Source: a virus. Taken from it: 64,000 nt of DNA. Below the pieces are notes generated by a model, which searched no databases, was not told the DNA's origin, and saw only the letters and a list, made by a program, of their open reading frames with translations. The position numbers and the translations under genes were made by a program. Where the stretch lies: positions 64,001-128,000 of IMG/VR virus record IMGVR_UViG_3300042539_000280. One strand, given 5' to 3'. Shown here in pieces: positions 4,034 through 45,631 of the stretch; within the stretch, counting starts at the first letter, position 1; each line of letters starts with the position of its first letter.

Positions 4034-7000
4034 TTACATTTGAAGGGCAATACATCTTAGGTCACCGACCTTTGGATATATTGCTGAATTATCACTGAGT
4101 AGACCAATCTTTACAGAGAAAGACTTATATCCAGTGAAGGACAATCCGTCGTCGGTGGTATAAGTTACCTCACCGTTTGGACCTCTTAGTGAAGGCTGCT
4201 GACCAATCTGGCCGATTACTGTGTTACCAACAACCACGCCTGTAGAGTTGACAACGTTTGCGGTTTCACCAATTAGGTAACCGGTGTCGGACATTACATA
4301 GATTGTACCTTCGATACGGTCAACAGTGGTTTCCGTTGCGGAGGTTAGACCTACTAGAGTGTCACCAACATTGATTGTTGAAACACCAGAGATAAACATG
4401 GTGCTGCCGATTGTCAATCTATCTGGTGTAGTAGAAGGAATGTTATAGTTGTATTCAATGTAATCGTTACGATCATCCTTAGATGAATACTTACCATCTT
4501 CGATTCCTGGTCTTACCAATTCTACCCAACCCTTGCTTTCGAATGATGTTGAGGTATCTTCGGCATGAGCAAGTCTCAACCAAACCTTTACATCAGTTCC
4601 TGGTGGACGATATGCTGCAAGAATGACCTCCATATCTTCGGCATCCTGGCCTTCGGCAAGTGTTACTGTTCTTGAAATATACTTATTCAATAGAGCACCA
4701 CCGGTAGCCAAAGTCTCATTGGTTGTATTAGAATTGATATGAGTATCAATATAGACAGAATGTGTCTTTGTTAGATCAAGTACCGGTGAAACAGTATTTG
4801 ATCCGGTTCTCATACCAACTTTTACCATATTTGTTCTGTTACCAGAGAAACTATTGATTTCTTTGGTTCTTGAGTATAGCGCCTGCTCGGTTTCAAAGTG
4901 ATAAGTTTCTGATGGTTCAATATCGAAATAAGCACCTTCGATTCCTGTATTGGAATAGGTTTTCATTTGGAAGTTGATATCAGTTCCTTTGAACTTCAAC
5001 ATTGAAGGTTCAAAAGATAGTGCTGAATATCTAAAGTTCTGAGTTGGATCAGCACCTTCAATAACACCTTGAACGCTTGTATCGGTCATGGCAAGGATAA
5101 CGTCATTGGCTATGAATCCACCACCAGAACCGGTTAGGTGAAGCATACTCATTTCTGCACCGTCAACATAGAAGTTCAAGAAACCTCTTGCATTGGTAAT
5201 AGTCGAAACTGTTGCATCAACACCCTTATAAACAAGGTTTGAAGCAAAGAAACAGTGAACAACCTCACCATTGGCAAAGCCTGTATTACCCATGGAGTAA
5301 ACACCACCATTGATGCTTCTAACCTCGGAGTTTCCAGATGCACCAATGAGTAGATCGCCTACTGCAATTGGGCCATTAGGACCGGTGTTAGCACCAGTTA
5401 GTGTTAGTTTATCACCAGAGATAAACAAGTCGCCAGAGTTATTGGCATCAAATGGAATTGTTCTGTTTCTTACGAAAATTCTTTCAACAGGACTATTACC
5501 AAGATATGCAACACCATCGACGTTTTCAACGAAGTCTGCTCTCCAGAAACGAACGGCCATATCAACATCAGGAATAATATCCCAGTTGGTATTGTTGTTT
5601 GTCTGATAGAATGTACCAAAACCACGGCGATCAACAATTGGCTGTCCTGTATTGATATCGTTTTCACCGAGTTTGGATACCCATAGATAAGTATCTGGGT
5701 TAGCATTGATAGGATGGATAACCAATGCATACTGGGTATTGTGCATCAAGAATACAGGTGCCTTGAATACTGCTCTTAGAGGGCTTGTGATGCCATTTGG
5801 TGAAAGAATAATCTGGTCAGGATCATCAAAGTGAACTTCTGAATATGGAACCTGGTTTCTTGTAATCTGCTGACCGGAATCCATTTCACGAATTTCAATC
5901 CAAATACCGTAGTCTCTGGACTTGCGTGACACGAATAGATCAACAGAGGTCAAGAACATACCTTCTTCACCCTTTGGTGCCTTGGCAAGGAATGAATATG
6001 CCGAGCATGAGTGTGAACACTGTGGTGGTGGAGGAGGTGCTGCAAGGAATGATGAATCGGATGAATAGTATGTATTCGATACCTCAACGTCATAATAAGA
6101 GATTGTCTGAGTTGACATGACGGTTCTCTGAACCTGCTGAGACAATCCTTCGGCAGTAAAGATAGCACGACCACCAGTGGTCACCGCATCAGAGAATGTT
6201 GCGCCCTGGACTGCGGATTCATCGATGTTTACTGGACTATCAACAACCACTAGGGCACGTTGGCCTGTTCTGAATTTATTTGCCTCGATATTCACCTGGA
6301 AGTAAACTTTACCCTTATCATCGGTGATTAGAGGTGCACCGTATGCGGCCCATGGTGGTTGTGCTACAGTAGTGGTACTTGTATCTGTGATAGCGGTAAA
6401 CTGTGTAGCAGTAATTGGTCGGCAACTATTGGCCATTGGAACGTTATCGAAATAGGCCCATACACGAGTATAAGGTTTCATGTTGACGGCAGAAACGGTG
6501 ATCATCTGTGGACGAATATAAGGAACAATAGAGGTATTGATAACCTTATAACCGGTTGTCTGAATGTCTGTACCAGTTGCTTGCCAATGCTGTGTACCTG
6601 TTCTATAATTGGTGAATAGGGTTTCAATGCTTACACCCTTACCACCAACTGGGTTATTGTTATTGGCAATCTGCTTGGCCTGGTCATAGTTCTGAACGTT
6701 AGCAGCAACTAGGGTTCTGTTAGTACCTGTTCCCTTATAAACATTATAACCAGTAATCCACTTCTGCCAAGCATTCCATTCGGTGTTGATACCCTTTCTA
6801 GTTACTGGATAAGTTTCTGTACCATAAGTAACAATATTTACTCTTGAACTGCCGAGCAATTCATCTGGTAGTTTTGTTGTATCAACCCAGATATCTGAAT
6901 CAGGGAATAGAGATACAGTACCTAGGAACAACCATGACTGTCTTTCAACGTTTCTATCAGTTGTAACACGAGTCTGCTCATAATGCATAACCTCGGTATA

Positions 7001-32596: not shown

Positions 32597-32900
32597 AGCG
32601 GGCCCGTTCTGTTTCGAGGTGGAGCCCATACCCAAAGGGTTACGCTGCTAGAGCGAAAGCCTCATATGCATTGTTATCGTTTGCATTTACGATTTGCTTT
32701 CGATCTCCTTACGACCTTACTGAATCCTGTCGAACCTGAATCGCCCCCATCATAAACAGAGGACTCTCCATGCCTTCTCGGTGATCAATCCGATATCTCA
32801 CTTCATAGAGCCAGCGTCCTGTTCCTCTGTTTATGGTGGAGGCGGTGGGAACTGCCCCCACGTCCAAGAAGCCTATATTCCGTCTCTCAACGATCTAAGC
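32597..32900 (-). ncRNA. ssrA: Circularly permuted (two-piece) tmRNA, alphaproteobacterial type; tag ANDNNAYEAFALAA
   Basis: Minus strand order: acceptor piece with T-arm GTGGG-GGCAGTT-CCCAC and CGCCTCC-A-CCA ending at 32834; 85-nt intervening segment; coding piece starting GGGGGCGA at 32748 (G3.U70 alanine identity pair); tag frame 32684-32640 ending TAA. Outer ends are approximate. Confidence 0.93.
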
Positions 32901-32904
32901 ATGG

Positions 32905-32935
32905 TATTTATAGCACATTTATGTCAGATTGTCAA
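32905..32935 (-). promoter_or_regulatory. Composite promoter for tmRNA: sigma70 TTGACA-17-TATAAA overlapping the T4 late motif TATAAATA
   Basis: Minus strand reads TTGACAatctgacataaatgtgcTATAAATA immediately upstream of the acceptor piece. Confidence 0.7.
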
Positions 32936-33521
32936 TAGCATTATCATTATAATAACTGAACCACCCGGTATAGATATACTTTTCCTGAGTTGGTGAAGTA
33001 ATACCTCTATGGGTAAATGTCCAATCAGCAGGCCAGATTATGGTCAATCCTTTTTCTGGTCTAATTTTTATTTTTTGGTGATAAAATCCTGTTTCGCCTT
33101 GATCCGTAACATCATTAAGATATGTAATAAAAACCAAATGTCTTGAACTCATAGGACGACTATAACAAGCCCTTTCGGAATGCCATCCGTGATAACCTCC
33201 GCCTGGAGGATAATATTGTAAATTTCCAGTTTCTACTGTTTTCCAAGGGTCGGAACAATTACAATAAGGATATTTTTCAATATACAAATCAATACACTTT
33301 TGTAATTCATCATTATAGATTTTAGATATGGTAGGATCTTCCAATTTGCAATCTATACTGTCTTTCATAGACTTATTAACAATTGCATATTCTCCAGAAA
33401 GACCTTGCCATTTATTGGAGGTATTCTTATGATAATCTATCATAAGGTCGCAAACTTGTTTGCTAATATACCATCCACATATAAAGTTATCAAACTGATT
33501 TATAAAGTGTTCTCGTAACAT
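32919..33521 (-). CDS. 2OG-Fe(II) oxygenase
   Basis: LQYYPPGGGYHGWHSE...RHLVFITYLNDV...GETGF...P.KG..IIWPA.WTFTHRG. Confidence 0.88.
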   Translation of the reverse strand: MLREHFINQFDNFICGWYISKQVCDLMIDYHKNTSNKWQGLSGEYAIVNKSMKDSIDCKLEDPTISKIYNDELQKCIDLYIEKYPYCNCSDPWKTVETGNLQYYPPGGGYHGWHSERACYSRPMSSRHLVFITYLNDVTDQGETGFYHQKIKIRPEKGLTIIWPADWTFTHRGITSPTQEKYIYTGWFSYYNDNAIDNLT

Positions 33522-40766: not shown

Positions 40767-41309
40767 TTAGAGCAATTTCGAAAGGTCGAGACCGTCAATG
40801 GAGTCCCAGTCACGGTCAACGTTGAAGGACGTGCCGACTTCGCCGGAAGTACCGAACGTTTCCGTCACATCATCAAACTCCCGAACCTTCTTCTTCGGTG
40901 CAGCCTTACGCTTTGCAGCAACGGCCTTTAGCGTCTCAAGGTTCTTTGCCTTGATTGCTGCCTTATCGACAACCTTAGCAGGCGCCTTGACCTTAGCAAC
41001 TGCCTTCGGTGCAGCAATTTTAGCCTTAGCAGCAGGCTTAGCAATCTTGCTTTTCGGCGTAGCACCACGAAGATCAGCAGCATTTGCCGGCTCGGCGATC
41101 ATTGTATAAGAAACGACCTTGCGGCCATCTTTGTTAGCCTGAATAGTAAAACCATAACGGGTATTCAGGAACGAAACATACTTAGCCGCATAATCACCAG
41201 TGCCGACATGGGCATTGATAACGTCGGGCGTTACAGTAGCGCCGAGCGGGAACACGGCAAGGGCACGGATTTCAGGACGGACACCATTAGAAGCAGCAAC
41301 ACGGGGCAT
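40767..41309 (-). CDS. Lys/Ala-rich putative DNA-binding early protein
   Basis: Winged-helix-like N-terminus, histone-like KPAAKAKIAAPKA centre, acidic tail; first gene after promoter cassette 1. Confidence 0.55.
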   Translation of the reverse strand: MPRVAASNGVRPEIRALAVFPLGATVTPDVINAHVGTGDYAAKYVSFLNTRYGFTIQANKDGRKVVSYTMIAEPANAADLRGATPKSKIAKPAAKAKIAAPKAVAKVKAPAKVVDKAAIKAKNLETLKAVAAKRKAAPKKKVREFDDVTETFGTSGEVGTSFNVDRDWDSIDGLDLSKLL

Positions 41310-41340
41310 ATTTAACTCCTTTTCTCATTTCAATACGGAT

Positions 41341-41410
41341 ATTATAGCACATAGGACGGATTAGTCAAGCGAAAAGGTATGTCAACGCCTGCGACATATT
41401 GTCGCACCCT
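41341..41410 (-). promoter_or_regulatory. Early promoter cassette copy 1
   Basis: TTGACT-16-TATAAT with TG extension; palindrome TGCGACA-N3-TGTCGCA at 41390-41406. Confidence 0.85.
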
Positions 41411-41438
41411 GAATGTAGACGGTTGACATACCCTGTTG

Positions 41439-41663
41439 TCATTCACCACCCTCTAGTCTGTTTACATACATCATACGGGACGCACCGCCCGCATAATCAA
41501 AATCCAAGGACTCGATTATGCCGTTGACCATGTCACGGTCAACCTTGAGACGGGAACGCTCATTAACATATTCTACCACATCGCCAACATAGTAGGCACC
41601 TGCCTCTATAGCATCACCTACCAATTCAACAATATCGGTATAGGCATCAGACATACGGGACAT
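41439..41663 (-). CDS. Hypothetical protein
   Basis: MSRMSDAY.DI.E N-terminus; GGAGG SD. Confidence 0.6.
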   Translation of the reverse strand: MSRMSDAYTDIVELVGDAIEAGAYYVGDVVEYVNERSRLKVDRDMVNGIIESLDFDYAGGASRMMYVNRLEGGE

Positions 41664-41664
41664 A

Positions 41665-42381
41665 TTAGAACCTCCAGAAAGAGTTGATCATATTGGTAAC
41701 ATAAACGTCGAGAATTTCCCAAACGTTTTTATTCGACTCAAGGTCCTCTTTCATCTTGCGAACCTTGGCCATCATGCTCATACCATGGGCAGGATAAGCA
41801 ACGACCTTGACAGTCTTATCCCAGCAGGCACGGCAGTCGCCGCATTTACCATCACGCTCATATGCACCACACATAAACGCATCCGTCGGTTCATCGGCAA
41901 ACGAAACAACGGTCGAACCATGTTCCTCTGTAAATTCACCGACAATAGACGGAGACGAATAACGCACCGCAGCATTGGGCAGAGTTTTCATACGGTCAAG
42001 AACCGCACGGATCTTCGGGATAGTATAAGACTTGGTCGGCAGCCAATGCTGCACATGCGGAGTCTTTTGCATCACCAGAAAGATTTTAAAAGCAAGAGCG
42101 GGATGATAAACGTCTCCCGAGTCGAACCAACGGAAAAACTTTTGCTTTGCAAGAGCCAGCACCATATCATCGACCCATTCGGCACGTTTCCAATCTTCAC
42201 GATTTTCTTCACGGACACGTTTTGAGTTTTTGAAACTGTAAGTGCCACCTTTAGCATAGCATCCGGCACAAACGGGCAACGGCTGCTTAGTAAACGGGTC
42301 AATCGATCCAGGGCAGGTCGAACCGGCCTGGAGAGACCACGATTTAGCGGGCATTTTCGACGCCTTGGAGAGATTAATCAT
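41665..42381 (-). CDS. GP88-like Cys-rich (Fe-S/radical-SAM-like) protein
   Basis: LSKASKMP..SWSL.A..TCPGS...VCAGCYA, FRWFDSGD, HWLPT, C.AY...GKCGDCRACWD...V.Y..H; start at MINLSK (AAGGA SD). Confidence 0.75.
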   Translation of the reverse strand: MINLSKASKMPAKSWSLQAGSTCPGSIDPFTKQPLPVCAGCYAKGGTYSFKNSKRVREENREDWKRAEWVDDMVLALAKQKFFRWFDSGDVYHPALAFKIFLVMQKTPHVQHWLPTKSYTIPKIRAVLDRMKTLPNAAVRYSSPSIVGEFTEEHGSTVVSFADEPTDAFMCGAYERDGKCGDCRACWDKTVKVVAYPAHGMSMMAKVRKMKEDLESNKNVWEILDVYVTNMINSFWRF

Positions 42382-42414
42382 TTTTGTTCCTTTTTCAATT
42401 TTCATCATACGGTA

Positions 42415-42485
42415 ATAATAGCACAAAGGAACGGTAAAGGCAACAGAAAAGGTATGTAAACAGGTGCGACATGATGACGCACCCT
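42415..42485 (-). promoter_or_regulatory. Early promoter cassette copy 2
   Basis: TTGCCT-17-TATTAT; plus-strand TGCGACA-TGA-TGACGCA at 42465-42481. Confidence 0.85.
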
Positions 42486-42489
42486 TAGT

Positions 42490-42606
42490 CTATAGTTTTG
42501 GTAGTCTTTTGCGATTGTAGACAGATTTCTTGTCTACATACACCTTCGGTCTACATACAGGAGTCCGGAGTGCCTTGGCCACCGGATTTATGGTTTTGCG
42601 TTTCAA
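42490..42606 (-). CDS. 38-aa basic peptide resembling ArfA, not in the ORF track
   Basis: TTG start overlapping the upstream TGA, GAGGAGG SD; MKRKTINPVAKALRTPVCRPKVYVDKKSVYNRKRLPKL. Confidence 0.6.
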   Translation of the reverse strand: MKRKTINPVAKALRTPVCRPKVYVDKKSVYNRKRLPKL

Positions 42607-42767
42607 TTTAGATAAACCTCCTCTATTTCAAAGTCATCAGAAGAAATTCCTTCATCGATTTCAAATTCTTCTAACATCATATCAATACAGGCCTGTGCCT
42701 GTTCTATTGTCTTAAAGACTCCACACATATCTGGTTCGAGAGAAAAATAAAGATTATAAACTTTCAT
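42603..42767 (-). CDS. Small acidic protein, paralogue family A
   Basis: MKVYNLIFSLEPDMCGVFKTIEQAQACIDMMLEEFEIDEGISSDDFEIEEVYLN; GGAGG SD. Confidence 0.65.
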   Translation of the reverse strand: MKVYNLYFSLEPDMCGVFKTIEQAQACIDMMLEEFEIDEGISSDDFEIEEVYLN

Positions 42768-42943
42768 TCTACATAATCCTCCACAATACTAAAGTCCTCA
42801 GGTGAATACATTGCTTCACCTTCAAATTCTTCGGCCAGCATTTCATTGAGATATGCTTCTGCCTTTTCATAGTTTGAATAGATGCCACGAATAACTTTAC
42901 CATCAATCAGGTCATCATACCAAAGAATAAAGATGTTATTCAT
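42764..42943 (-). CDS. Small acidic protein, paralogue family A
   Basis: MNNIFILWYDDLIDGKVIRGIYSNYEKAEAYLNEMLAEEFEGEAMYSPEDFSIVEDYVE; GGAGG SD. Confidence 0.65.
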   Translation of the reverse strand: MNNIFILWYDDLIDGKVIRGIYSNYEKAEAYLNEMLAEEFEGEAMYSPEDFSIVEDYVE

Positions 42944-43095
42944 TATCTTGCCTCCACAGTATTACCTTGATAAAAGGCATCATTCTTATAGTGTTCGATA
43001 TAACGTTTTACTGCTACACGAGAGATACCACGAAAGGTAAGAAAGGTGCCCGCACTAAAGTAAACGGTCAGATTGAACGTATTAACATTAGCCAT
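42943..43095 (-). CDS. Small protein, paralogue of 54760-54945
   Basis: MANVNTFNLTVYFSAGTFLTFRGISRVAVKRYIEHYKNDAFYQGNTVEAR; AAGGAG SD. Confidence 0.6.
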   Translation of the reverse strand: MANVNTFNLTVYFSAGTFLTFRGISRVAVKRYIEHYKNDAFYQGNTVEAR

Positions 43096-43215
43096 TATAT
43101 TTACTCCTTAGAGAAAGGTAAACACCAAGAACGCCGATTGTATATACGATAACCATCCACTCCGGCACGAAAGCATAAAGCGGATAGCCGTCAAAGCGGA
43201 TGGATATTGTCATTA

Positions 43216-43398
43216 TTACGGTCCTTGCCATTCAGCGGCCGGAGCATCTAACTCACGAGCCTCGATACGATAAAACGGTACATCAACAGAACGATCCCAG
43301 TCCTCAAATGCAGCACGAGCCGCATCCTCAGAACCATACACACCAATCAACCAGTCAGAGTCCGAGAACGGCTCGGCTACCAAAGCATATACTCGCAT
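43216..43398 (-). CDS. Small acidic protein, paralogue family A
   Basis: MRVYALV....WLIGVYGSEDAARAA...YRIEARELD. Confidence 0.65.
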   Translation of the reverse strand: MRVYALVAEPFSDSDWLIGVYGSEDAARAAFEDWDRSVDVPFYRIEARELDAPAAEWQGP

Positions 43399-43648
43399 TT
43401 AGTTCGTCCTATCAATAACAATCCACAGCAAAGTGCCGATAAAGGAAAACGTAGCAACCATACCGAGTGCCACATATTGCATGATTTTATTTTCGTCCAT
43501 CATCTAACAATCTCCTTCTCCATAATGTATAACCAGTTACCATCATCGGTTTGTTTACCAAACCGCATGATTGAATATCCGATATTAGATAATTCGACCA
43601 GTCGTTTGGCGACGAAACGAAAAGAACCAGACAGGATTATTTGGTGTG

Positions 43649-43804
43649 TCATATGAAAATATCCTCCAATTCGTCCATGTCGTTTATAGTACCAGGAACA
43701 ATCCAATATGAGATATCAGCATCAAGTAACAGATTGCCAAGGTACTGTGTGAAACAATACTCACGAGTGCCACGTTCATCGTAGATAGAATAAAACACCG
43801 TCAT
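43649..43804 (-). CDS. Small protein with SYWIVPGT motif, paralogue family B
   Basis: MTVFYSIYDERGTREYCFTQYLGNLLLDADISYWIVPGTINDMDELEDIFI; AGGAG SD. Confidence 0.55.
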   Translation of the reverse strand: MTVFYSIYDERGTREYCFTQYLGNLLLDADISYWIVPGTINDMDELEDIFI

Positions 43805-43814
43805 ATTAGTTCTC

Positions 43815-44033
43815 CTATTCAGCCATCACGGCCTTGAGCAAATCTTCATTCATAACAGTAGCAGCAATAAGGCGCAAGGTCTTTAACTTGCGGGTTGCTA
43901 TTGTTACAAGTTCGGGATCACTCAGGCAATCCCGCTTCATTCCCATTTCAGATAATGTGACGGCGAGTTCTTCCATGGGCAATTCCATGTTCTCACGATA
44001 TTCTTGAGTATCAAGATTGACAATCGTAGTCAT
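43815..44033 (-). CDS. Hypothetical protein (start at MTTIVN)
   Basis: GGAG SD before the internal ATG of the 43815-44087 ORF. Confidence 0.5.
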   Translation of the reverse strand: MTTIVNLDTQEYRENMELPMEELAVTLSEMGMKRDCLSDPELVTIATRKLKTLRLIAATVMNEDLLKAVMAE

Positions 44034-44121
44034 ATCAATTCTCCATGCTAGTAAGAGCAATAAGAGCAAACGCAACCGGCGGAACAAACACTACCATAAA
44101 GAGAACGATATCAGTCATTAA

Positions 44122-44337
44122 TTACTCCCAAGGTTTGGCTTCACCAAGATAACAACGTGCCTGTCTAGTACCTTCAGGATTAACTAGATTAAGAAACGTG
44201 TTACCCCATTCACCGATACGGGTTGACTCGGTGATATGAATAATAGTCCAAATTTGACGGCCGGTGCCAATTTTAATCTTGTCACCGATTACAGGATCCC
44301 ATCGTTTTTCATCTTTAAAGCGATTTGACCTTTTCAT
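44122..44337 (-). CDS. Hypothetical small beta-barrel protein
   Basis: IGDKIKIGTGRQIWTI motif; GGAGG SD. Confidence 0.55.
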   Translation of the reverse strand: MKRSNRFKDEKRWDPVIGDKIKIGTGRQIWTIIHITESTRIGEWGNTFLNLVNPEGTRQARCYLGEAKPWE

Positions 44338-44339
44338 TA

Positions 44340-44498
44340 TTAATCCTCCAGATTAAGAGTGCCGGGAACGATCCAATAGGACTCGGACGGATATTTGCCG
44401 CTATTGTGATTAGCACAATAGTAAGCAACCATCCAATCGTTATCAAAACCATCGGGTTCGAATACCGAAAGAGCATAGATATGACGCATAAAATACAT
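44340..44498 (-). CDS. Small protein with SYWIVPGT motif, paralogue family B
   Basis: MYFMRHIYALSVFEPDGFDNDWMVAYYCANHNSGKYPSESYWIVPGTLNLED. Confidence 0.55.
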   Translation of the reverse strand: MYFMRHIYALSVFEPDGFDNDWMVAYYCANHNSGKYPSESYWIVPGTLNLED

Positions 44499-44677
44499 TA
44501 TATTTCCTCTCCACATTGGCCGAATTGATATATTTCGTCCAGTTCAACCTTACGGATATAAACGTCACTGTCTTTCAGAGACAATACATAATCACGAGCC
44601 TTCACATAACTGGAGAATATGCCCATTAATTGCTCGCCCTCATAAGCGATTGACCATATTACAGCGAAAACTTCCAT
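44498..44677 (-). CDS. Small acidic protein, paralogue family A
   Basis: MEVFAVIWSIAYEGEQLMGIFSSYVKARDYVLSLKDSDVYIRKVELDEIYQFGQCGEEI. Confidence 0.65.
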   Translation of the reverse strand: MEVFAVIWSIAYEGEQLMGIFSSYVKARDYVLSLKDSDVYIRKVELDEIYQFGQCGEEI

Positions 44678-44681
44678 GATA

Positions 44682-44846
44682 TTAACCTTTCGTTAGTTTA
44701 ACCTTAGAAACAGTATAACCCTTCTTCGGGCGTTTCACAGGTTTGGCCACTTTAATTGTACCGCCATTCTCAAAATAGTTAGTGAGGGCGTTAAGAGTGC
44801 CAAGGTCCAGGTTAAAGGACTTTTTAACGAAACGGGCGTTAGACAT
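44682..44846 (-). CDS. 54-aa basic protein with a SutA-like motif, first gene after promoter cassette 3
   Basis: MSNARFVKKSFNLDLGTLNALTNYFENGGTIKVAKPVKRPKKGYTVSKVKLTKG; AAGGA SD. Confidence 0.55.
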   Translation of the reverse strand: MSNARFVKKSFNLDLGTLNALTNYFENGGTIKVAKPVKRPKKGYTVSKVKLTKG

Positions 44847-44878
44847 GATATTTTCCTTTCAATCTCGATTGTTGACGT

Positions 44879-44949
44879 ATCCTAGCACAACGGAACGGCA
44901 TTGTCAATGTAAACTGGCACGGAACTGGTGCGACATGATGACGCACCCT
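44879..44949 (-). promoter_or_regulatory. Early promoter cassette copy 3
   Basis: TTGACA-17-TAGGAT; palindrome at 44929-44945; 33-bp exact identity with copy 2. Confidence 0.85.
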
Positions 44950-44979
44950 TAGTCTATAGAGTCGGTAGAGTGTTGTCAT

Positions 44980-45300
44980 TCACCGAACGTCTGTATTGAG
45001 GGCGGGAGAGAGGTCACGGATCAATTCCCGCTCACGGAGGTGAGCCTCGGCCTTGCCTCGAACCACCTCATAATAGCAGACCTCGAACGCCTCCGGACCG
45101 TATTTCCGTATCGCCTTGCATAAGGCCCAGTCCCTGCCTTCGGTAAGGGCTCGGCGGACATGCTTTTGCCAGCGACGGATAACAGACTTGGACACGGCTG
45201 ATTTGTCTACATACGTCACACCGATATACTCTAAACCATTGACGGATAAAGAATATATGACATGCTTACGGTCGGAACGTGATTTGCGCTTTTTGATCAT
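44980..45300 (-). CDS. GIY-YIG nuclease-family protein (probably leaderless mRNA)
   Basis: VIYSL...EYIGVT...RWQKH...LCKAIRKYG..AF...A...ERELI....LN. Confidence 0.75.
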   Translation of the reverse strand: MIKKRKSRSDRKHVIYSLSVNGLEYIGVTYVDKSAVSKSVIRRWQKHVRRALTEGRDWALCKAIRKYGPEAFEVCYYEVVRGKAEAHLRERELIRDLSPALNTDVR

Positions 45301-45305
45301 GCTGC

Positions 45306-45375
45306 ATTATAGCACAAGGAACGGAATAGGCAATAAAAAAGGTATGTAAACGACTGCGACAGGATGTCGCACCCT
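45306..45375 (-). promoter_or_regulatory. Early promoter cassette copy 4
   Basis: TTGCCT-16-TATAAT; TGCGACA-GGA-TGTCGCA at 45355-45371. Confidence 0.85.
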
Positions 45376-45433
45376 GACCTTGGCCGTTTACATACCTATA
45401 AATCTACCGGAATAGTAGAGTGTTTACAATAGA

Positions 45434-45631
45434 TTAATGCTCGTAAAAATCGTCCACTTCGTCAAAATCCTCGGTGTGTTCCATCCACGCCTTCTTGAGG
45501 TTCTTGAGAGGACGCTTTTTAGAAACCTCAGATTGAGGTCTTTCTAGGCGTTTGCCGCCATACTTGCGATCCTCTTCCTGGAGTTCGGCGTAGATAGAGT
45601 CGATAGGATTATGCGATTTCATCTTAGTCAT
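45434..45631 (-). CDS. Hypothetical protein (start probably MTKMKSHN)
   Basis: Basic/acidic small protein downstream of the SprT-like gene; start uncertain. Confidence 0.45.
   Translation of the reverse strand: MTKMKSHNPIDSIYAELQEEDRKYGGKRLERPQSEVSKKRPLKNLKKAWMEHTEDFDEVDDFYEH

Follow-up and report, generated by a model that had tools for sequence, protein, structure and literature searches.

Five copies of a 17-bp palindromic box were found upstream of early promoters in a viral genome, four of them in the stretch of DNA analysed here, and each copy lies at a nearly constant distance from the −35 and −10 elements of its promoter. The stretch, called the window below, comprises 64,000 nucleotides (bases 64001–128000) of the 164,392-bp viral record IMGVR_UViG_3300042539_000280, which is estimated to be 94% complete. 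The box is of the operator type recognized by the RegA/PrrA/ActR/RegR/SpdR family of response regulators. Judged from sequence, the cassettes that carry it are probably modules of the promoter-early stem-loop (PeSL) type, the 17-bp core of which would serve as the operator for a host regulator of this family. Activation by the bound regulator is less certain than the binding itself.

Promoter cassettes and their palindromic boxes

Four minus-strand cassettes, here termed A to D, were all present as the preliminary description had given them. They share a −35 element TTG(A/C)C(A/T), a spacer of 16–17 bp and a −10 element TA(T/G)NAT. The spacers of all four contain CCGT(T)CC and end with GTGC, and therefore each of the four promoters has an extended −10 element (TGn). 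Promoter A (window positions 45306–45333, minus strand, as are the following promoters) consists of TTGCCT, a 16-bp spacer (ATTCCGTTCCTTGTGC) and TATAAT; promoter B (44879–44907) of TTGACA, a 17-bp spacer (ATGCCGTTCCGTTGTGC) and TAGGAT; promoter C (42415–42443) of TTGCCT, a 17-bp spacer (TTACCGTTCCTTTGTGC) and TATTAT; and promoter D (41341–41368) of TTGACT, a 16-bp spacer (AATCCGTCCTATGTGC) and TATAAT. Box A (45355–45371) reads TGCGACA-TCC-TGTCGCA on the minus strand and is a perfect 7-3-7 palindrome. Boxes B (44929–44945) and C (42465–42481) both read TGCGTCA-TCA-TGTCGCA, and box D (41390–41406), TGCGACA-ATA-TGTCGCA, is again a perfect palindrome.

The pattern GCGNC-N5-GNCGC occurred exactly four times in the window, only in the cassettes (41391–41405, 42466–42480, 44930–44944 and 45356–45370), against an expectation of 0.08 copies, and none of 100 shuffled sequences reached four copies. 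In the whole genome, five copies were found compared with none of the reversed control pattern. The fifth box (genome positions 150778–150792) is located outside the window, and its position relative to the promoter was also kept. The fifth cassette (genome 150650–150900) lies approximately 22.8 kb past the end of the window, directly behind a tRNA gene. It consists, in order, of TGTAAACAGTCTAT-N7-ATAGACT, AAGGG, the box, an A-rich stretch and the promoter TTGACT-17-TATAGT, and cassettes of this type were found again in four relatives.

Counted to the final base of the −10 element, the distance of the box centre was 57, 58, 58 and 57 bp in cassettes A to D and 57 bp in the fifth copy, and the box ended 21 bp before the −35 element in each of A to D and 20 bp before it in the fifth copy. 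The palindrome was therefore located at a fixed, activator-type position, as previously proposed. The DNA between the box and the −35 element of the fifth copy is unrelated to that of A to D (A-tracts instead of GTTKACATACC and a T-tract); the spacing is kept nonetheless. The left arm of B, C and the fifth copy, TGCGTCA, is mismatched to the right arm. This mismatch, present in three of the five copies, coincides with the position that is a free N in the RegA consensus and would be a U-U mismatch in an RNA stem. The flank (A/C)AGGG or AAGGG is conserved on the left side of the box only.

Two further elements accompany the boxes. The start of the spacer just after the −35 element, (T)TCCGT(T)CC, is conserved in cassettes A to D (41341–45333) and in many relatives, and a sixth promoter with the conserved spacer (TTGACATTCCGTTTCTTCTGTGCTATCCT), at genome position 143159 on the minus strand, has no box. 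The conserved spacer may be a second operator, or it may merely reflect the common ancestry of the cassettes. In B, C and the cassettes of the fifth type, an element (A)GTCTA(C/T)-N7-9-(G/A)TAGACT followed by AAGGG is found just upstream of the box (44946–44965 and 42482–42500). It forms an inverted repeat in five relatives, and in cassette C it resembles a direct repeat of AGACTA rather than an inverted repeat.

Identity and helical phasing of the box

All five copies fit the GCGNC-N5-GNCGC inverted repeat of the RegA family. The 15-mers in the peaks of RegA chromatin immunoprecipitation (ChIP) in R. capsulatus read GCG(A/T)CA-N3-TGNCGC, for example GCGACCGTTCGTCGC at ccoN and also CGGACAAAATGTCGC (PMC5359404). 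The best site of SpdR, the RegA orthologue of Caulobacter, by electrophoretic mobility shift assay (EMSA) is CTGCGAC-N5-GTCGCAG, and SpdR sites are found at cspD and CC0517 (PMC4830024). The phage box, TGCG(A/T)CA-N3-TGTCGCA, matches both the RegA ChIP sites and the best SpdR site.

The palindrome GGTGCGACA-N3-TGTCGCACC, with 18 specified bases, was found at no fewer than 120 bacterial loci. For the beta- and gammaproteobacteria, the open reading frames (ORFs) within 400 bp of the palindrome were clustered. Among the matches listed, a six-transmembrane histidine kinase whose best NCBIfam match is ActS/PrrB/RegB was located beside the palindrome at 11 loci, a REC plus HTH_8 regulator whose best match is ActR/PrrA/RegA at seven, the copper chaperone PCuAC at seven and CyoA (quinol oxidase subunit II) at seven. 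In 121 sampled alphaproteobacterial genomes, the perfect 17-mer occurred in only 11 copies versus five for the reversed control. Intergenic copies among these were located upstream of the genes for subunit II of cytochrome c oxidase (in two genomes), the Rieske subunit of bc1, coproporphyrinogen oxidase (HemF) and a chemoreceptor (MCP). Oxidase, bc1, heme and chemoreceptor genes are the kinds of genes that make up the published RegA regulon (PMC5359404). On the basis of the published sites and of the gene neighbourhoods in beta-, gamma- and alphaproteobacteria, the box was assigned to the RegA/PrrA/ActR/RegR/SpdR operator type, which supports the assignment in the preliminary description.

Several other candidates and matches were set aside. 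The sites of NtrC, TGCACCA-N3-TGGTGCA, have the same 7-3-7 architecture as the box and a different core. NtrC sites, matS, C-protein boxes, the hairpin promoters of the N4 virion polymerase and lambda boxB, all compared by their generally known sites, did not fit in sequence or spacing. Matches in Halomonas fall inside conserved coding sequence and were not used as evidence. Multi-copy matches in Oscillospiraceae, which have a CNG centre and T-runs, were set aside as probably an unrelated terminator-type repeat; in five metagenome-assembled genomes of this family, GGTGCGACAC-N-GTGTCGCACC was seen in as many as five copies per 8 kb, with complementary flanks and T-runs. To our knowledge, Firmicutes lack RegA. 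In a Sideroxydans metagenome-assembled genome, the box (approximately 6027–6047) forms the middle of a perfect palindrome some 53 bp long, with more TGCGNC-like half-sites at 7- to 8-bp steps on both sides; this palindrome may represent several regulator sites arrayed at a regB/PCuAC locus.

The box pattern with its GGG flank was present in at least 119 IMG/VR contigs, compared with six for the reversed pattern. The following viral counts refer to the matches listed. The GC content of the box-bearing contigs ranged from 30 to 69%. When 315 distinct box orientations were inspected, 52 had a promoter-like site starting within 30 bp, and in 40 of these 52 the gap between the box and the −35 element was 0, 10–11 or 20–21 bp. 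Control anchors shifted by 120–240 bp gave 9–20 promoter-like sites, of which 1–7 were in phase. After similar cassettes had been collapsed into 28 families, 18 were in phase versus approximately five expected. These gaps place the box centre near −44, −54 and −65. Because the gaps are discrete and one helical turn apart, the box lies on one face of the helix, which is a signature of a protein that contacts RNA polymerase. In class I and class II activation by CRP-type activators, the sites likewise occupy discrete positions upstream of the −35 element that are spaced by one helical turn. Unlike CRP, the RegA family is an unrelated protein family, and contact with RNA polymerase is hypothetical here.

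The position near −65 described earlier as typical of an activator parallels that of the RegR element around −67 of the fixR-nifA P2 promoter in B. japonicum (PMC4064962). At the bacterial boxes beside regB or PCuAC, a TACAAT-like −10 element ends 36–37 bp from the box centre, with no recognisable −35 element. This geometry is the same as that of the phage class with gap 0, and it is characteristic of promoters that depend on an activator.

Among the contigs with the box, at least three lineages of phages were distinguished: the T4-like clade of the present genome, relatives of the Pelagibacter myophage HTVC008M (71% nucleotide identity) and a family related to the Pelagibacter phages HTVC023P and HTVC027P. 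There is about an even chance that these unrelated lineages of uncultured phages (more than 100 contigs) independently placed consensus-perfect, phased RegA-family boxes on their promoters, which would make RegB/RegA, an energy-state sensor that is nearly universal in proteobacteria, a common input to phage expression in natural waters. RegB/RegA is carried by SAR11 genomes (PMC7318151). In seven contigs of the HTVC023P/HTVC027P-like family, arrays of two or three boxes were seen, some of them in tandem with a 37-bp period. The arrays are near terminase genes, in three contigs beside paired DnaA-box-like TTATCCACA motifs, and many boxes of this family are at contig ends. These arrays could be a regulatory or origin region, or could mark an assembly break at repeats.

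Hairpins, candidate binders and rival explanations

In three of the cassettes the box is enclosed by a longer hairpin. In cassette A, an outer inverted repeat (45341–45396, minus strand), GGTATGTAAAC ... GTTTACATACC, encloses the box and is followed by TTTTTTA; its RNA fold is terminator-like (−32.3 kcal/mol, z −7.4). In cassette C, a long-range hairpin (42451–42558, minus strand) is formed by pairing of the arm GTATGTAGAC (42558–42549) with GTTTACATAC (42460–42451). An inner hairpin and box C lie within it, and it precedes UUUUCUG (−34.1 kcal/mol, z −4.0). The outer inverted repeat of cassette D (41376–41432, minus strand), GGTATGTCAAC ... GTTGACATACC, precedes UUUUCGC (−28.4 kcal/mol, z −5.4) and differs from that of cassette A by a compensatory change of A/T to C/G. 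No outer hairpin is present in cassette B (fold z −0.4), and neither B nor the fifth copy has a terminator-like fold or a U-tract; the box is at the same spacing in both. Among the relatives, cassettes that lack the 5′ arm altogether are about as numerous as those with both arms. A simple terminator scan called none of the cassettes, and a search of Rfam with window positions 41200–45600 gave no relevant match at E≤1. The hairpins of A, C and D probably terminate or stabilise transcripts arriving from upstream.

This architecture resembles that of the PeSL cassettes of T4-type phages, which are composites of a terminator and an early promoter among small variable ORFs and are homogenised by recombination (PMC4122927). 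As in the PeSL of RB49/phi1, T4/PST and KVP40/nt-1 (PMC2839356, PMC4122927), a stem-loop is located just upstream of a σ70-like early promoter, behind which come a Shine-Dalgarno sequence and a start codon. Also as in PeSL, the unit occurs repeatedly in a region of a T4-like genome that contains small ORFs and mobile genes, and its presence varies between close relatives. The stems of PeSL are only loosely conserved (GN-loop-CN, A3-4G3-loop-C3T3-4) and have been read as terminators. In contrast, the apex here is an invariant 17-bp palindrome identical to a host transcription factor site, and it is at a fixed, helically phased distance from the −35 element even where there is no terminator-like fold.

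The genome (GC content, 41%) encodes a T4-type baseplate protein gp8, RNase H, DNA ligase and a class II ribonucleotide reductase. The closest cultured-phage matches of the reductase are in Sinorhizobium, Rhizobium and Roseobacter phages, and the nearest cultured relatives of the RNase H are T4-like phages of cyanobacteria and Methylophilales, with approximately 50% identity. A full-length, circularly permuted tmRNA (32597–32939, minus strand) best fits the alpha_tmRNA model (RF01849, 98 bits) and carries the tag ANDNNAYEAFALAA; it is the best clue to the host and suggests an alphaproteobacterium. Because of these T4-type genes, the reductase matches and the alpha-type tmRNA, the record is taken to be a T4-like phage whose host is most probably an alphaproteobacterium. 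No close cultured relative was found among cultured phages by megablast of the region or by tblastn with the baseplate protein. The ActR/PrrA/RegA family was detected above the curated cut-off in 57 of the 121 sampled alphaproteobacterial genomes.

With respect to the binder, a gene for a Fis-type helix-turn-helix protein (PF02954, HTH_8) gave no match in the phage at E≤1. All-against-all clustering of the ORFs at 119 box-bearing viral loci revealed no protein family near the box that is common to the phage lineages. The single family found across lineages (141 aa) is encoded far from the boxes and is absent from this genome. The simplest binder is therefore a host factor that is conserved. 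In the mechanism proposed, a dimer of the host regulator would bind the box, which is centred approximately 65 bp before the transcription start and lies 21 bp before the −35 element, and would share its face of the DNA with RNA polymerase. It would modulate initiation at the five early promoters, most likely by class I activation. The boxed promoters would drive accessory genes, among them the GIY-YIG endonuclease-like gene, the block of tiny ORFs and the GP88-family gene, and in A, C and D the palindrome would double as the tip of the long hairpin that ends at the U-tract. Binding by host RegA, the sign of the regulation and its dependence on the redox or energy state are what we infer from these data. 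RegR activates its target under all oxygen conditions (PMC4064962), and redox gating is therefore not implied by binding. The redox gating of infection and the link to NrdJ (the reductase) offered in the preliminary description are speculation.

A number of observations weigh against binding by a host RegA-family regulator. Only five of approximately 45 near-consensus σ70-type promoters on the early strand carry the box, so that the earlier suggestion of phage early transcription being wired to the host system would hold for a subset of promoters and not for early transcription as a whole. The boxed promoters have a good −35 element and an extended −10 element of their own, and their need for an activator is not obvious. 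No perfect box was found beside regA in the 121 sampled alphaproteobacterial genomes, and the regBA adjacency of beta- and gammaproteobacteria thus does not extend to Alphaproteobacteria. The cultured phages HTVC008M, HTVC027P, HTVC023P, S-PM2 and Melnitz-1 have zero boxes; for the pelagiphages this absence counts against the proposal, and the link to them therefore comes from uncultured relatives only. In a cyanophage, the binding of PhoB agreed only in part with the boxes that had been predicted (PMC10976474). The conserved GGG on one side of the box is outside the published RegA consensus. The hairpins of A, C and D have the box at their tip and a 3′ arm that runs straight into the U-tract, and the outer arms TGT(A/C)AAC and GTT(T/G)ACA covary here and in relatives, being complementary in 23 of 28 two-armed cassettes. 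A role of RNA or DNA structure is thus real and could be the primary one.

The hairpins with their U-tract and the covarying arms, together with fold energies of −28 to −34 kcal/mol (z −4 to −7.4), would be expected if the palindrome formed only the stem at the apex of a PeSL-type hairpin that terminates transcription or stabilises RNA, its copies being kept identical by recombination, with no sequence-specific protein involved. The T4-type PeSL cassettes do have the layout of a stem-loop followed by a promoter and are homogenised in this way (PMC4122927), and the cassettes here are present or absent at orthologous positions of close relatives. However, the spacing of the box is unchanged in B and in the fifth copy, which have neither a terminator-like fold nor a U-tract, and the arm mismatch in three of the five copies weakens the stem at just the base that is free in the protein consensus. 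The arms are invariant and the loop is variable, and none of the cassettes was called by the simple terminator scan. Moreover, the 17-mer is present in unrelated phage lineages with different flanks, helically phased to the −35 element, and at bacterial genes of the RegA regulon. A purely structural role is therefore quite unlikely.

A sequence-specific binder other than RegA, either a phage early or middle regulator of unrecognised fold or a host factor of like specificity, could switch the five promoters on or off. A phage-encoded binder was also the alternative given in the preliminary description. Most early ORFs have no family assignment, the one-sided GGG flank is left unexplained by the RegA consensus, and the lack of the box in cultured relatives fits a lineage-specific phage system. 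On the other side, the genome has no HTH_8 gene, no protein family near the box is common to the three box-bearing lineages, and the identical palindrome is found at regB/regA operons and respiratory genes of cellular genomes that contain no such phage. Given the palindrome in cellular genomes and the lack of a shared phage protein, a conserved host factor is more economical, and another binder is considered unlikely, though not negligibly so. If host RegA does bind, its effect could be exerted elsewhere: boxes on replicating phage DNA would soak up the regulator and thereby reprogram host respiratory and energy genes, rather than act on the adjacent promoters. Five perfect 17-mers in a 164-kb genome, compared with 11 in total in the 121 alphaproteobacterial genomes, are in keeping with such titration, as is the quality of the phage boxes, which are better than almost all natural host sites, those in the R. 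capsulatus ChIP data being mostly degenerate (PMC5359404). Five sites per genome are nevertheless a small number, and a sponge does not need the strict spacing and phasing to the −35 element seen across many phage lineages, which point to contact with RNA polymerase. Titration is accordingly very unlikely.

Relation to known systems and genes downstream

The phage boxes are like the operators of the RegA family (PMC5359404, PMC4830024, PMC4064962) in having a GCG(A/T)C-N5-GTCGC inverted repeat with TG/CA extensions and an upstream activator-type position, approximately −65 here versus −67 for RegR. They differ from the cellular sites, most of which are degenerate, in being consensus-perfect and in their location on a lytic phage genome. 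They are also repeated five times in 164 kb, were predicted from sequence and are fused to a terminator-like hairpin and a stereotyped promoter.

The closest parallel in phages is the control of cyanophage genes by host PhoR/PhoB through Pho boxes, described by Zeng and Chisholm (2012), as cited in PMC10976474, and for S-PM2d (PMC10976474). In both cases a lytic T4-like phage has sites for a host response regulator, here putative ones, before its own genes, and in the cyanophages phage expression follows a physiological signal of the host. PhoB is a winged-helix protein that responds to phosphate, whereas RegA has a Fis-type helix-turn-helix and responds to a redox or energy signal. The targets are auxiliary metabolic genes in the cyanophages and early accessory ORFs here, and binding was demonstrated by EMSA for PhoB, whereas that of RegA to the phage boxes is deduced only. 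In the literature searched, no description of RegA-type boxes on phage promoters or of RegA/PrrA control of phage genes was found.

The case demonstrated so far of a host two-component system controlling phage genes is that of PhoB in cyanophages. If the present proposal is true, RegB/RegA would be the second host two-component system co-opted by phages, after PhoR/PhoB. If RegA binds, a lytic phage would read the respiratory or energy state of its host through the host's global redox regulator and would adjust a defined subset of early accessory genes to that state. As the motif occurs widely in contigs of uncultured viruses, host physiology and infection may be linked in this way as a general feature of their ecology, and PeSL-type cassettes would gain a potential partner acting in trans. 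Well-studied regulators allow a direct test of the prediction; the helix-turn-helix motifs of RegA and PrrA are identical (PMC5359404).

Promoters without a box are far more numerous in this genome. Near-consensus σ70 promoters, mostly exact TTGACA-17-TATAAT, are in strong excess on the minus strand throughout the genome; those scoring at least 11 of 13 number approximately 42 on the minus strand versus nine on the plus strand. Many of the minus-strand promoters are within ORFs or at ORF ends.

The genes described below are on the minus strand. The gene behind promoter A (44980–45300) encodes a 106-aa GIY-YIG homing-endonuclease-like protein and has cassettes A and B on either side. Promoter B precedes a block (42490–44846) of approximately 14 tightly packed small ORFs of about 27–72 aa, nearly all without a family match; for the tiny ORFs between cassettes B and C, only one PHROG match, of unknown function, was obtained. 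By eye, these tiny ORFs (42603–44677) include paralogues: the motif SYWIVPGT(L/I)N is common to two proteins (44340–44516 and 43649–43804), and a similar N-terminal pattern is seen in four proteins of 54–60 aa (44498–44677, 43216–43398, 42764–42943 and 42603–42767). The first gene from promoter D (40767–41309) encodes a 180-aa protein without a family match.

The gene from promoter C (41665–42381) encodes a 238-aa GP88-family protein (PF17338). Upstream of its orthologues in relatives with at least 80% identity, the cassette is present in some and absent in others. In a sister clade, the GP88 proteins of which are 70–75% identical (loci L263–L282 and L326), a different, stereotyped promoter module is located upstream of the orthologue. 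Based on this presence and absence and on the module of the sister clade, the cassette is considered to be a mobile, lineage-specific module. In the sister-clade module, TTGACA and the spacer lie between the arms of an inverted repeat, ACCACGGGC ... GCCCGTGGT, which extends into the −10 element (TATCAT); this repeat looks like an operator for another regulator.

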